64,000 nucleotides of DNA from Octopus vulgaris (taxonomy: Eukaryota): contig OX597835.1 in assembly GCA_951406725.2 (NCBI GenBank), forward strand, positions 9,300,001 through 9,364,000. Reading direction: 5' to 3'. This document shows, in pieces, positions 2,200-61,315 of this stretch (position 1 is its first letter; each line of letters opens with the position of its first letter). The position numbers and the translations under genes are program-made. The notes under the pieces were generated by a model. It did no database searches, had not been told where the DNA came from, and was given only the letters and a program-made list of their open reading frames with translations.

Positions 2200-2468
<269 letters not shown>

Positions 2469-2469
2469 C

Positions 2470-3172
2470 CCAAAACATGTAATGAAAAGAAATATAACAA
2501 GTAACTGCAGAATATGTGGAGATGGACAAGAAACAATAAATCATATTATTTCTGGCTGCTCAGTCCTAGCTAAGAAGGAATATATTCACAGACATGACAG
2601 AGTTGGGACCTACATACATTGGAAGCTATGCCAACATTATGGAATAACAACAGAAAAAAGATGGTATAGGCACACACCAGAGAAGGTCACAGAAAACGAG
2701 AAAGCAACCGTACTCTGGGATATGCCAATACACACAGATAGAGAAATTAAGGCTAACAGACCAGATATAGTTGTCAGAGATCATGAAGAAAGAAAATGCT
2801 TTCTAATTGATGTATCAATACCGGCAGATGACAACGTGTCTCTAAAAGAAATGGAGAAACTCTCAAAATACAAAGACCTGGAAATAGAGGTAACCAGAAT
2901 GTGGAATCTAAAAACAGAAACAATTCCTATCATAGTAGGTGCAATAGGCATGATTAAAAAATATTCAGACAAATACATAACAAAACACCAGGACTTACAA
3001 ACACATATAACATACAGAAAATTGCACTACTAGGCACTGCACACATCCTACGCAGAACACTTTCCATACAATAACCATCAGAGCATCACAACAAATCACA
3101 GCACATACCCAGGGCACACAGAGCTGTGCTCGGTAGTGAAGTGAAAGTACGCTATAAAAATAAAACTACTGA
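2470..3172 (+). mobile_element. 5'-truncated Dong/R4-like LINE 3' end: CCHC knuckle, restriction-like endonuclease and 3' UTR
   Basis: ORF 2482-3033 has CRICG...HIISGC, RHD, RPDIV...LIDV and KYKDL motifs. A frameshift near 2985 continues as IQKIALLGTAHILRRTLS*. (AAT)n on both sides. Confidence 0.93.
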
Positions 3173-6940: not shown

Positions 6941-7357
6941 GGGGCGAGCTGGCAGAATCGTTAGCACGTCGGGCGAAATGCTTAACGGTATTTCGGCTGC
7001 CGTTACGTTGTGAGTTCAAATTCCGCCGAGGTCGACTTTGCCTTTCATCCTTTCGGGGTCGATAAATTAAGTACCAGTTAAGCACTGGGGTCGATATAAT
7101 CGACTTAATACCTATGTCTGTCCATGTTTGTCCCCTCTGTGTTTAGCCCCTAGTGGGTAATAAAGAAATAGGTATTTCGGCTGCCGTTACGTTGTGAGTT
7201 CAAATTCCGCCGAGGTCGACTTTGCCTTTCATCCTTTCGGGGTCGATAAATTAAGTACCAGTTAAGCACTGGGGTCGATATAATCGACTTAATATATATG
7301 TCTGTCCATGTTTGTCCTCTCTATGTTTAGCCCCTTGTGGGTAATAAAGAAATAGGT
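6941..7357 (+). mobile_element. tRNA-derived SINE family 2, head-to-tail dimer
   Basis: GGCGAGCTGGCAGAA head, GAGTTCAAATTCC B-box and GTCGACTTTGCCTTTCATCCTTTCGGGGTCGATAAA central domain; body repeated from about 7171. Confidence 0.9.
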
Positions 7358-7365
7358 ATTACATG

Positions 7366-14154: not shown

Positions 14155-15094
14155 ATTTATGTATGTATGTATTTATGTATATATGCATGTATGCATGTAT
14201 GTATGCGCCTCTTCTCTGTCAATCTCTTTCCCTCTCTTGTTCATCATCCTTTCTGGTTTTCTCTCCCACCCTTCCCTATTCTTCTCCTCTCCTCTTCACC
14301 GTTCCCTATTTCCCTCTTTCACCATGACTCTCTCGTCGCTGACACGTGACAAAAGGGAATCTATCTTTCTTTCCATTTCTTTCCCAAAGACAAGACGTGC
14401 TTTTACCTGTCTCCTCTCATTAGCTCGTCCTCCTAGCGTTCATAATAACTTTCCTATCGTCTTCACTTAACAGCCCTCACCGTTTGTTTTTACTGTCTTG
14501 TTCTCACTTTCCTGTTCTTGTTACCACTTTCACCCTCCGCAAAATATCCCAAATTTTATTTAATTTGCTTTGCGGGAAGGAATATTTCACGAAGTCGCCT
14601 CTTGTCCTTATCTTCGAAACACGGAGTAGATGAAACAGGGACAGCTGATAAAGGGGAATATTCTTTATGTTGCATGTCTCGTTTCTCTTTTTTGATTATT
14701 TGTTATTTCTGAATTAGCCAGGATTGTTCATTCACAACTAATCAACAAGACATATACACATGTGGCGTTCGTCCTTCCTCTCTCTGAAAATGGCCCGATT
14801 GCCTGCTTTATAAATTTTGGGGGCTTAATAGGCGAATATTAACAATTAGAATATAGCGTCGGCACGAACCAGCAGCATATTTTTGTTCTTAACATTTGTC
14901 GTTCTGTGAATGAGCAATGTTGCGCAAGATTTTCCAAAATGGAATGATCTAAGTTACACTTTCTCGAGATCTTTAAAATTTCCTTTTTCATCCATCAGCT
15001 GACCGAGAACCAACAGATAATTCCCCAAAGGAACGCTACTTAGGGTTTACTGGAATCGGACAGATATATATATGTGTGTGTATGTTATGCAATT

Positions 15095-28288: not shown

Positions 28289-28365
28289 TATAGATAGATA
28301 GATAGATATAGATATAGATATATATGTATATATATGTATATATGCATATATATACATATATATAT

Positions 28366-28560
28366 AAAGTTAATCCAAACAAGAAAGCACAAAACACACA
28401 CAACAACGCGAGGACGTGGAACAATTATAATATTATTGGACTCCCAGGAAAGAAGGAGAGTTTAACGTTTCGAGCGGAGCTCTTCGTCGGAAACATAGGA
28501 GAAGGAAATATCCAGAGAAGGGAAAACAGAGGAAAAAAATCGCCAACGGTACACGTGGTC
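28366..28560 (-). mobile_element. Penelope-like non-coding element (family A) inserted in (TA)n
   Basis: About 195 bp between two TA tracts; homologous to 46548-46755; contains a hammerhead motif. Confidence 0.75.
28460..28494 (-). ncRNA. Minimal type I hammerhead ribozyme motif (U4>C)
   Basis: Minus strand reads GTTT-CCGACGA-A-GAGC-TCC-GCTC-GAAAC-GTT-AAAC. Confidence 0.7.
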
Positions 28561-28622
<62 letters not shown>

Positions 28623-34811: not shown

Positions 34812-35700
34812 TTAACCCTTGGTCTAATAGAGAAAAATGTATGCCACTAATTACAAAATGGGTCCAATGGACCCCAATTTTTTTCTTTTAATTAAAATTT
34901 TATTAATTAATGTAGCTACCACTAGCTACATTGCATATGCTATCAGGTTAATGAAGAATTACTGTTTCTCACAAATTTTAATTAAAAAATATAGCTTACA
35001 GAATATATTATAATTTTTTTTTTTTTTAAATTACAAAAATACAGAATTACTGTTTTCCATGGCAGTGAATTCAGACAGCATTGGTATGTTCTTGGCAAAT
35101 ATGGATATTGCAATTCTTACATGTAATATGAGTTTTCCTGCCATTTTTGGGGTGCGGGATACACAAAGAACAACATCCTTTTTTCTTTGGCTGAAGAATG
35201 TCAAATGAGGTTAAAGATCGTCTTCTTTTCTTGTTTTGTTTTGTTTTTTTTTTTTTTTTAGTAATGTCAGCAGAACTAGAAGATTGTTTGTCATGTTCTT
35301 GTTTAGCATTAACCCCAGCAAATTCCTTTCCTAACTGAATTAGGCACTGTCTCCTTTTATCCTTGAAACTTTGCAAGTGAAGCAGATTAGTAGCAACGAA
35401 AGCATCCATTGCACTTATATCAAACATGTTATATAATTTAATCCTAGGCCATCTACGAGTCATTTTTCTGCAAATGGATGACCTTACCATCTTGTCTGGG
35501 GTAGCTGTTCCTCCTTTTGTTTTGTTGTAACATGTAATAACTTCAGGTTTATTTTCAGCACTTTTCGAATCAATTGAAGGTTGAGACTGCATTGTATTCA
35601 TAAGTGTGACAACATAATTTTTCTTGGAACAATAAGATAGGATCATAAAATCCTATTGAATTCCAAATATTCTGCTGTCACAGTTTTGAAATTGTTGTTG
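34812..35700 (-). mobile_element. piggyBac transposon 3' part: transposase C-terminus and terminus
   Basis: ORF 35071-35646 has YNKTKGG, RKMTRRWP and a Cys-rich domain CSLC...CKNC...C..H. TTAA followed by CCCT terminus at 34812. The GGVD motif is lost (GGTA). Confidence 0.9.
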
Positions 35701-46220: not shown

Positions 46221-46649
46221 ACCATATAATACTATCCTTCCTAAACACTATGCCAAAATATTAGAGGGAGGTCAATGGGATGGGGTTGGATGTGTTCGAG
46301 AAACGACTTGCTATCCAAGATCCCATATGAACCAATATCAAGATAGGAAACTCAAACGAGGGAAGCAGTGTCGAACGCCCTCCATTACCTAAAGCCAATC
46401 ACATAGCAGTAGCCAATTAAAAGGAGATTACACTGGTGGTGCCCCAGGATGGCCACAGCATTAGGGATGAAACATATTAAGGAAGAAAAGAATATAGCTT
46501 TATGATTCTATGTACGCATATCATATATATATATATATATATATATGAAGGTTAATCCAAACATGAAAGCACCAAAAAAACACAACAACGCGACGACGTG
46601 GAACAAATATAGTATTACTGGACGCTCAGGAAAGAAGGAAAGAAGGAGG

Positions 46650-46684
46650 ATTTAACGTTTCGAGCGGAGCTCTTCGTCAGAAAC
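46650..46684 (-). ncRNA. Minimal type I hammerhead ribozyme, canonical core
   Basis: Minus strand reads GTTT-CTGACGA-A-GAGC-TCC-GCTC-GAAAC-GTT-AAAT; stem III is the ACGT palindrome. Confidence 0.8.
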
Positions 46685-46910
46685 AAAGGAGAAGGAAAGA
46701 TCCAGAGAAGGGAAGACAGGGGTAAAAAATCGCCAACGGTACACACACGGTCTAATTTTGAATATATATACAAATATATATATATTTGTATGTGTGCGTG
46801 TGTTTGTGTTTGTGTGTGTGTGTGAGTGTGAGTGGCCGTGTGGTGAGAAGCTTGCTTACCAACCACATAGACCCGGGTTCAGTCCCACTTGAAAGAAGGA
46901 AAGAAGGAGG

Positions 46911-46945
46911 GTTTAACGTTTCGAGCGGAACTCTTCGTCAGAAAC
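46911..46945 (-). ncRNA. Minimal type I hammerhead ribozyme, canonical core
   Basis: Minus strand reads GTTT-CTGACGA-A-GAGT-TCC-GCTC-GAAAC-GTT-AAAC; a G-U pair preserves stem II. Confidence 0.8.
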
Positions 46946-49035
46946 ATGAGAAAAGGAAAGATCCAGAGAAGGGATGACAGAGGGAAAAAAATAGCCAGCG
47001 GTACCCACGCGGTCACATTTTGAATGCAGGATTTTGAATTCATATATATATATATATATGAATATACGGGTACAGGCAGGACACCACCATCTTAAATACG
47101 AAAGCAAATGATTTCAATACGCAAACAACCTGAGAAACAAATGGAAACCAGGACAAGTAACATAAAGAATGACCCTTCATCAGTTGTCGGCTGTCTATCT
47201 ACTCCTCATTTCGAGAAGTGAACGTCAATATAAGGGTTAGAAGACATATGCTCCCATATATACCAAAATAGAATTTGGGATTTTGCAGGGTTAAATTTGG
47301 GAACAAAAACAGGACAGTGGAAACCGAACGCAAAAAAACAAAAAACAAGAAGGGTTGTTAGACAAGAACGAGGATAAAATAGCGAATACTGGAGAAATAT
47401 TTTCTTTGACAAGAGAAAAGATAGAATAGACAGACAGGTTACGCCCAGTCTATAGGACAACCCTGATCGCGTGAGGAAAAGAATGATGTACGATGTTTTC
47501 GTGTGAGCAACGAAAGAGAGTAAAGGAGAAAGAGGGGAGAGAGAGAGAGAGAGAGAGACAGATAGACAACGGAGAAGGGGAGAAAAAAGGAATTAGAGAA
47601 AAGGAGGAGAGAGAAAACGATTTGGGGAAAAACAGTATATATGAGCGAGATGTAAACAGTAGCAGCACGACAGCGTGAAGTATATTTTGCACCTAGATAT
47701 GGTTGACCCATATGGGACGATGCTATTGTGGTTTATAGGCCCAGGAAGACATCTCCTCTAGCTGGCTAACGACACACTGTCTGTGCCGGATCTGTATTTG
47801 CGAAAGGGAATCATCGTTCCTATCTCTATAAAATGTTTCTAATATAACAATTTAAATATATTCTTTAATCATATAACACTATCCTTCTGTAGTATTTTCA
47901 CTCTTTTTTGTCTTTTATACAACCAACCACGTGCTTTCACATACCACCTATCTCACCTATATATACATATATATAGACAGAGAGAGAGAGAGATACACAT
48001 AAATACATACACACATTGCGAGTATTCTTCTGCAGGTACATGGGAACACTCACTGATACACTATGACACATTTACACGTCTCAGACATATATATACTTAG
48101 AGACAGACCGATAGATAATAAATAGATTGAGTGATATGTGTGCAGAAAGATATAGACATACACATATATGTATGTGTGTCTTATATGTATATATAAGACA
48201 TTATATATACGTGTGCGTGTGAGTGTGTGTGTGTGTTTGTATGTATGTATGCACTTATATATACTGCGCAAATATTCATTCGTTGTCAATATAAAAAAGC
48301 ACTCAATGACATAATTTAATCGTTTGTTTTCACGTCTGCTTTTAATTTTCCTTTCTCGAATTGCTTATTCTGTGTTGTTTATTTCTCCATTCTAAATTGG
48401 CAATCATTTGCGTTGTTTCATTTGCAGACAAATTGGATACTATTAAACTATATAACATAACCTACATTGAGTCCTGTACTGACTACTTCTACAACTACTA
48501 CTACTACTACTAAGATGAGGAGGAGGAGTAGTAGTAAGAGCTCTGCTGCTGCTGCTGCGGAATCGGCTTTTGAAGTTTAAACAGTAATGAGGAAGACAAA
48601 TTCGAGCAAATTTCAAAGAAAGAAAGGTAAAGAAAAAAAGGAAGAAAACAAGTAGAAAAAAATGAATCTAAGAAACCAGGAAAGAGAACATTTATTCTTC
48701 ACAGAATTAAAATTGAGCAAATCTTTTAGAAAAGCTGTTTCTTCATATTATAACAGGGGTACTACTACTACTATTACTGCAAGTACTTCTATTACGTCTG
48801 CTAGTATTTCTTCAGTTACTGATACCCGTGCTTCTGTTGCTGCTGTTAATAAAAAACAATCAATTCTACTATAGGCACAAGGCCTGAAATTTGAGGGGAG
48901 GGTACTAGTCGAGTATTGCCCTTACCATGCGATAACATTCTCTTCTGAACCTTACCTTTATCATAGAATGTTTGATTCCATCACTTTCAAATACCCTTTG
49001 GGATTTGTAGCTCTCCATTATTATTATTATCATTA

Positions 49036-49478: not shown

Positions 49479-49559
<81 letters not shown>

Positions 49560-49641
49560 CACTACTACCACTACTACTACTACTACTACTTCTACTACTA
49601 CTACTGCTGCTGCTACTACTACTACTACTACTACTACTACT
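49478..49641. repeat. (CTA/CCA)n microsatellite
   Basis: Tandem array. Confidence 0.95.
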
Positions 49642-49913
49642 ATTGAGTTCCAATACTGCCTATGTTGACATTATATTTCATTCCGTTTAAGTCGATAAAA
49701 TAAGTAGCAGGTGGGCGTGGGGTGTGTGGTCAACATCGGCACTATTGGCTCAATTATCCCACTCCCGTTAAATTGCTGGCTATATGCCAGCATTTTAGAC
49801 AGTTTTAGACAATTTTAGATAAACTATTGTTGATAACGTTGTTGTTAATGTCACTTTTGCAAATTTTCTGATACGAGTAAAATGGATTCCACCTGCGATG
49901 CAATTATGATATG

Positions 49914-51124: not shown

Positions 51125-51475
51125 TTGCTGTAGTTTGAAATTTTGAGACAATTAGCCATTTTTTTTTTTTTTGAATTTAACGTTTCATTCAGTATAGTCT
51201 GCCATTGTCTTCAGTCTCAATATTTCAGTAGGTGTAAAATGAACTGAATTTCACTGAGCCAAAGCAACTAGGCAGAAGGTTATTGTTCGTACTCACATAT
51301 TTGCTGTAGTTTGAAATTTTGAGACAATTAGCCATTTTTTTTTTTGAATTTGACGTTTCATTCAGTGTAGTCTGCCATTGTCTTCTGTCTCAATATTTTA
51401 GTAGTTGTAAAATGAACTGAATTTCACTGAGCCAAAGCAACTAGGCAGAAGATTATTGTTGGTACTCACATATTT
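51125..51475. repeat. Tandem duplication, 2 x about 175 bp
   Basis: TTGCTGTAGTTTGAAATTTTGAG...ACTCACATAT starts at 51125 and again at 51301. Confidence 0.93.
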
Positions 51476-55166: not shown

Positions 55167-57836
<2,670 letters not shown>

Positions 57837-60925: not shown

Positions 60926-61315
60926 TTTTTTTTTTTTCTTCTTTCAAATTTTTTTCCATTTCTTGCCGAGTGTCTTCCCGATTCCTAGGGCAAAGAAACT
61001 CATAGTGTATATTGGTAGGCCATTAAACCAAACTCAGTAGTTCGTTAATTTTTTTTTTTTTTAAGTTAAATTAAAATACATGAGCAGCAACAGTTCTCAC
61101 ATCGACAATGCTCTTCTCAATACGTGTGATGTACCAGTTAAGACAATCTTTTGCACTTCTTGCAGGGATGGTAAGCCAGGGATCATTCTCATATAATTTT
61201 CGGTTCCCTTCTTGATCATTCCTAGTGCTCCTACGATCACTGGTATTGTAACCGCCTTGAGATGCCATATTTTCTCAATTTCAATGAGTAGGTCTTTATA
61301 TTTTCTATATTTTCT
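60926..61315 (-). mobile_element. Dong/R4-like LINE 3' end
   Basis: Minus strand reads KYKDLLIEIEKIWHLKAVTIPVIVGALGMIKKG...VQKIVLTGTSHVLRRALSM*, homologous to 2870-3074; (AAT)n on both sides. Confidence 0.9.

Follow-up and report, generated by a model that had tools for sequence, protein, structure and literature searches.

Two minimal hammerhead motifs 261 nt apart probably belong to separate copies of a dispersed, (TA)n-flanked repeat

The minimal hammerhead ribozymes (min-HHRs) of metazoan Penelope-like elements (PLEs) are described by Cervera and de la Pena (2014; PMC4209133) as mostly single, widespread motifs that probably represent truncated PLEs, and closely spaced dual motifs are also on record there. 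A preferred PLE target is (TA)n, and hammerheads lie near the 3' ends of the elements (PMC8557442). PLEs account for 6.83% of the Octopus vulgaris assembly, where they are divided into 190 families (PMC13282606), and 235 matches to the Rfam hammerhead_1 family have been reported from the giant squid genome (PMC6962438).

The locus described here lies in a 64-kb window (the whole stretch of DNA that was analysed) and carries two minus-strand hammerhead motifs, A and B, which an initial annotation had read as a retrozyme-like tandem unit. We put the probability at about 65% that the motifs belong to two copies of a very abundant, dispersed, (TA)n-flanked repeat, which is likely a stub of the terminal repeat of a Penelope-like retroelement or else a non-autonomous derivative of such an element, and that the 261-nt spacing likely stems from a deletion that fused one copy to the head of a SINE, leaving no replicating unit. 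The window directly shows three copies of the repeat with their boundaries (Table 1), a spacer that contains a SINE head and microsatellite, and a single junction at which copy A and the SINE have each lost an end.

Table 1. Hammerhead motifs, repeat copies and spacer components in the 64-kb window.
Feature	Positions	Strand	Remarks
Minimal type I hammerhead motif A	46911..46945	-	Core 46941-46935; predicted cut 46915/46914; matches the min-HHR consensus (PMC4209133 supplement)
Minimal type I hammerhead motif B	46650..46684	-	Core 46680-46674; predicted cut 46654/46653; H17 46654; one stem I pair G-U
Copy A of hammerhead repeat	46891..47016	-	Without the last ~85 nt common to B and C; preceded by a short extension and (TA)n
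Copy B of hammerhead repeat	46545..46754	-	Apparently complete, ~210 nt; (TA)n on both sides
Copy C of hammerhead repeat	~28365..28562	-	Solitary; (TA)n on both sides; core CCGACGA
SINE-like repeat head, 60 nt	46830..46889	+	Antisense to the hammerheads; broken off at its contact with copy A; alignable to 7 further heads in the window
(TG/CA)n and (TA)n microsatellite	46755..46829	.	Between SINE head and copy B

The motifs and the repeat that carries them

The initial annotation had described two minus-strand minimal hammerheads with a full core, paired stems I and II and a stem III consisting of ACGU, and both a descriptor search and a reading of the letters bore this out; the two predicted cut positions, 261 nt apart, were also confirmed. 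On the minus strand, motif A runs from GUUU (46945-46942) through CUGACGA (46941-46935), an extra A (46934), stem II with its loop (GAGU-UCC-GCUC, 46933-46923), GAAA (46922-46919) and CGUU (46918-46915) to AAAC (46914-46911). The same string recurs 261 nt downstream as motif B, except that a C-G pair replaces U-G in stem II and G-U replaces G-C in stem I; both changes preserve pairing, and the cores of A and B are intact. The CUGANGA / GAAA / NUH core in type I order is present in A and B, and U4 is changed to C in copy C. Helix III in A and B is the palindrome ACGU only. The extra base between positions 9 and 10.1, the G10.1-C11.1 pair, the palindromic 15.2-16.2 and the lack of loop 3 all agree with the consensus given in PMC4209133, as does the U-rich 5' flank with its metazoan min-HHR consensus. 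As far as letters can tell, motifs A and B are Penelope-type minimal hammerheads by the published consensus.

The descriptor, which combined the core with a stem II of at least 3 bp, a palindromic helix III and a stem I of at least 3 bp, matched three times in the 64-kb window (at 46941, 46680 and 28490, all on the minus strand) and not once in 100 shuffled windows (dinucleotide shuffles in 2-kb blocks). Rfam gave no match at the gathering score anywhere in the window and so missed the hammerheads. Over 46400-47400 at E values up to 10, Rfam returned 21 matches, no hammerhead family among them; the microRNA matches in this set scored far under gathering and were discarded as (TA)n hairpin artefacts. 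Exact and loosened hammerhead patterns found no locus in metagenome contigs, prokaryote genomes or viral contigs, collections that are unlikely to contain the host.

Each motif sits in a longer repeat. Copies B and C are about 200-210 nt long and start at a nearly identical base; copy A has the same start and ends 24 nt past its cut site, and other contigs of the family run on at this point into a tail of the B type. The starts of all three copies fall within a few bases and the ends of two coincide, which hints, on three copies, at a fixed-length non-autonomous element and not at random truncation. (TA)n lies at the 5' side of all three window copies and on both sides of the two complete ones. 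Copy C, which the initial annotation had overlooked, is some 18 kb from the A/B pair. Over the 117 columns present in all three copies, identity was 103 (88.0%) for A-B, 101 (86.3%) for A-C and 104 (88.9%) for B-C, so that the A/B pair does not stand out against either comparison with copy C; this equal divergence would fit independent insertion and co-insertion in the same burst alike. A and B agree against C in 7 of the 21 variable columns and share a 9-nt 5' extension that is absent from C. Among the 40 of 137 sequence differences listed, ten within A or B depart from the family majority, and nine of these are private to one copy. Two of the ten lie in the tail missing from A; of the eight that can be tested in both copies, seven are private, and the single shared departure sits at an indel-ambiguous homopolymer edge.

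We aligned contigs from 4 of 24 listed public runs to 46340-47340 at 80% likeness. Two of the four are probably DNA and bear different organism labels; the other two are guessed to be RNA. On this region, which includes two other repeats, they gave 27,080, 26,117, 7,087 and 821 aligned contigs; the individual items listed were 40 of 137 differences, 15 of 57 joints and 32 of ~61,000 pieces, with microsatellites excluded. In one DNA run (X1) the summed contig depth over copy B was ~2.6-3.6 million, compared with 28 in a bin of unique sequence and 60 for a contig that matches the locus exactly, and the depth over copy B was similar in the run with the second organism label. These ratios (~4x10^4 to 1.3x10^5) suggest a family of roughly 10^4-10^5 members, an order of magnitude, summed depth being no copy number; the estimate fits a density of one to three copies in 64 kb if the genome measures a few gigabases. 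In a family so dispersed and so abundant, close same-strand pairs are expected by chance: with 3x10^4 to 1.2x10^5 copies and an assumed 2.7 Gb, some 50-800 same-strand neighbours would lie within 300 nt. The family is apparently dispersed at high copy number in (TA)n targets, as is a PLE terminal repeat or its derivative. A 293-nt contig of run X14 (depth 885), about 85% alike over 46603-46752, extends ~140 nt past the 5' end of copy B, and a 626-nt contig of run X1 extends past it likewise; either could be the parent element or a longer member of the family.

The coding content of the window yielded no parent. No Penelope reverse transcriptase (RT) or GIY-YIG fragment was found in the 214 of 315 stop-to-stop frames, the non-repetitive ones, that were scanned against Pfam. 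Five Pfam matches arose in these frames, all under curated cut-offs, and only zf-RVT at 2467-3030 looks meaningful, and it is unrelated. With no ORF or parent element found, the link to Penelope rests on motif shape and target site, from which we infer a Penelope origin of the repeat. Short words of the repeat were absent from the PMC8557442 supplement, a weak negative because long sequence runs are cut there.

Several other features of the window are recorded here in their own right. At 51125-51475 two 173-bp units, 94% alike, form a true head-to-tail dimer; they carry on the minus strand the core look-alikes CTGAAGA...GAAACGTT (51214-51179) and CAGAAGA...GAAACGTC, whose stems fail the descriptor, and which may be remnants of a minimal hammerhead from a different family or may have arisen by chance. 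At 45519-45512 on the minus strand a lone TTTCTGACGAA resembles the start of a hammerhead core, and its surroundings contain neither a second half nor homology to the family. A second abundant repeat (47094-47325; summed depth ~0.5 million) lies just upstream of copy A and has a diverged copy at 14483-14693. It bears a CTGATGA half core on the minus strand with GAAA ~35 nt upstream, and no Rfam ribozyme was matched; PMC8557442 lists an 'HHR_half_core' and a (TA)n preference for octopus Naiads. Three 3' fragments of non-LTR retrotransposon ORFs end in trinucleotide repeats, at 2467-3033 on the plus strand (the place of the weak zf-RVT match) and at ~49500-49670 and ~61100-61300 on the minus strand. 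An open frame of 193 aa with a cysteine-rich tail at 35071-35652 on the minus strand has no Pfam match; it looks like the decayed end of a piggyBac-type transposase.

Composition of the 261-nt interval

The 261 nt between the two cuts break down into 24 nt of copy A, one junction base, the 60 nt of the SINE head, 75 nt of microsatellite and 101 nt of copy B. Tandem Repeats Finder returned no 261-nt period among its 118 rows, and the stretch common to A and B is only ~125 nt long (47016-46891 with 46754-46630), the remainder being SINE head and microsatellite; the description as a tandem unit is thus not confirmed. Nor is the claim of a 261-nt retrozyme unit supported, since the interval is unrepeated, consists of the end of a truncated copy A, an antisense SINE head, a microsatellite and part of copy B, and draws its motifs from a family that is dispersed and abundant.

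The SINE head is cut short. All seven of the other aligned heads in the window continue into further SINE sequence, full SINE copies span ~435 nt, and contigs that leave the locus at 46889 into a normal SINE body number 483, 643, 152 and 61 in runs X1, X4, X8 and X14. The junction between the SINE and copy A was bridged by none of the 32 pieces listed of ~61,000. Because copy A and the SINE each lose one end at this same junction, a single deletion explains both losses. We also considered that copy A had inserted into the SINE and displaced its body, and rejected this after finding no SINE body beyond copy A. The head contains what we take to be look-alikes of the Pol III A- and B-boxes; it is the only promoter-like element in the interval and points opposite to the hammerheads. 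Elsewhere in the window, at 6987-7360 and 55773-56139, two tandem dimers of a 184-bp unit belong to an abundant SINE-like repeat (97% and 88% alike).

The interval has a GC content of 43.7%, and its size and GC lie within the ranges used for retrozymes (150-450 nt, GC under 45%). Folded as a 261-nt circle it reached -47.6 kcal/mol with half of its bases paired (z -2.1 against 100 shuffles), and 50 of the 65 pairs involve the SINE head or the microsatellite. When the double hammerhead was imposed on the 475-nt transcript, the structure lay 22 kcal/mol above the best fold. We set this penalty aside as evidence, since a perfect dimer of copy B incurred +25 kcal/mol and spacer-shuffled controls averaged +22.1, 19 of 30 at or below the real value.

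Contigs of the two runs guessed to be RNA, in which the family sequence is present, gave no locus-specific RNA. Joints that skip 260-292 nt superficially resemble excision; they also occur in the DNA runs and are explained by single family copies that align partly to A and partly to B, so they were not accepted as excision. A back-joint from 46654 to 46914 was not among the 15 joints listed of 57. We likewise made no use of the ratios of RNA to DNA depth or of the RNA depth of zero at 47054-47087, contig depth being no measure of expression and the runs only guessed to be RNA.

Weighing the explanations

The separate-copies explanation would work as follows. A Penelope-type RT/GIY-YIG endonuclease would have made the insertions into (TA)n, and in the parent element the hammerheads would act as dimers to cut a tandem precursor RNA. 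Copy A, copy B and the SINE would have reached one microsatellite-rich patch independently, and a later deletion would have taken out the 3' end of copy A and the body of the SINE; adding back the ~85-nt tail and the ~370-nt SINE body, the original spacing may have been ~700 nt or more. The A/B pair would then be without a selected function, and slow cis-cleavage of chance read-through RNA could still take place. We count against this explanation that the cores of A and B are intact while that of C is altered. Together with the shared 9-nt extension and the columns in which A equals B, the intact cores keep alive a rival in which A and B began as the two halves of a head-to-tail dimer of the ~210-nt unit, produced by joint insertion or by local duplication; such a dimer, of retrozyme origin or a partial tandem left by Penelope, would later have been spoiled by a SINE insertion between the copies and the deletion of A's tail. 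Even so, the present 261-nt interval would not be the unit. The same strand, same 5' start and common extension of A and B suit such a dimer, and so do the frequent partial tandems among PLE insertions described in PMC8557442 and the vertebrate retrozyme families in 10.64898/2026.07.22.740005, which come from PLE pLTRs and occur in monomeric, dimeric and multimeric form. However, A resembles B no more than it does C, a PLE partial tandem truncates its upstream copy at the 5' end whereas it is the 3' end that is missing from copy A, copy C stands alone, and no further unit follows B. A depth of 38,000-68,000 over the extension bins (edge bins, hence weak) also suggests that the extension is a variant of the family and not a local feature. 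We regard the dimer as unlikely on balance.

The remaining alternatives are less probable still. That the pair arose by accident and nevertheless works, so that a minus-strand read-through RNA would fold as a double hammerhead and be cut slowly at one or both sites to release an immobile piece, strikes us as quite improbable. All core nucleotides are intact in both motifs; in modelling, a single nested structure would accommodate the ACGU duplex together with stems I of 4 bp each formed by cross-pairing, and dimeric min-HHR constructs did cleave somewhat in vitro (PMC4209133). That activity was low and needed non-physiological Mg2+, however, and among the Xenopus dimers in 10.64898/2026.07.22.740005 one of nine cleaved; the predicted ensemble probability is ~0.016 for the ACGU duplex and ~0.001-0.002 for the stem I pairs of the monomers. 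The initial annotation had rightly supposed that such motifs need a partner, since in PMC4209133 single motifs did not cleave and dimers cleaved at a low level. Its main proposal, under which the interval would be excised as a retrozyme monomer, close into a circle and be retrotransposed by a Penelope RT, we hold to be highly improbable. Two intact same-strand hammerheads 261 nt apart at 44% GC do fall in the range of non-LTR retrozymes (PMC7229834), and the circular fold is somewhat stabler than its shuffles; against this stand the lack of a 261-nt period, the SINE and microsatellite that form the spacer and also dominate the circular fold, the lack of the circularising joint among those listed, and the retrozymes of PMC7229834 themselves, which carry canonical type I hammerheads, min-HHRs being assigned there to PLEs. 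A retrozyme is defined by a unit repeated head to tail with a hammerhead in each, and the interval is not such a unit. Least credible of all is that the motifs are chance look-alikes in a repeat unrelated to ribozymes: Rfam did not recognise them and single copies fold no better than shuffles (z +0.82 and -0.98), but none of the shuffled windows matched the descriptor, and features beyond the core match, namely the extra base, G10.1-C11.1, the palindromic 15.2/16.2 and the U-rich flank, agree with the consensus.

If the motifs lie in separate copies, the pair matters little, given that min-HHRs in dispersed Penelope stubs are known across animals and that close pairs are inevitable in a family so large; A and B are likely ordinary repeat debris and no new circular-RNA element. 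The family has an interest of its own, as a hammerhead repeat that looks very abundant in the host genome and is nonetheless missed by Rfam. The locus is also a trap, because single-copy contigs that align half to A and half to B mimic an excision of ~260 nt, in DNA runs too. A tentative further idea, which we think possible if doubtful, is that the ~210-nt repeat forms a non-autonomous hammerhead retroelement of fixed length, present some 10^5 times in an octopus-like genome. Circular RNA from tandem master arrays would have seeded these copies, which would make the repeat the dispersed monomer of a cephalopod retrozyme with a minimal hammerhead. Should the 210-nt unit indeed have tandem masters and a circular RNA, retrozyme-type mobility in cephalopods would be tied to minimal hammerheads. 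Literature searches on octopus Penelope elements and cephalopod hammerheads listed no report of such a cephalopod family or of a min-HHR retrozyme, and the family may already stand in Repbase or Dfam.

Comparison with described systems

The non-LTR retrozymes of animals, as described in PMC7229834 and 10.64898/2026.07.22.740005, resemble this locus in being non-coding, in carrying same-strand type I hammerheads at a spacing of 150-450 nt, in their low GC and in their proposed PLE partner. They differ in that theirs are head-to-tail repeats with one hammerhead per unit, whereas the interval here is unrepeated and over half SINE and microsatellite.

Among the endonuclease-bearing (EN+) PLE clades in PMC8557442, Neptune, Hydra and Naiad share insertion into (TA)n with the present repeat, and Neptune and Hydra also a hammerhead near the 3' end. 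Naiads are described there as without canonical hammerheads and are therefore the least likely parent.

Against the min-HHRs of metazoan PLEs in PMC4209133, stem II is short here (4 bp) compared with 7-8 bp in Schistosoma; a cephalopod example did not appear in the searchable supplements of that paper, one file being outside the search. By its motifs the locus is placed with these hammerheads, and it would act as they do. The motifs share the type I order, CUGANGA followed by one extra base, G10.1-C11.1 and GAAA-C-G-U-H without a loop 3, together with a short stem I, a U-rich 5' flank and an occurrence mostly as single dispersed copies in very large numbers.
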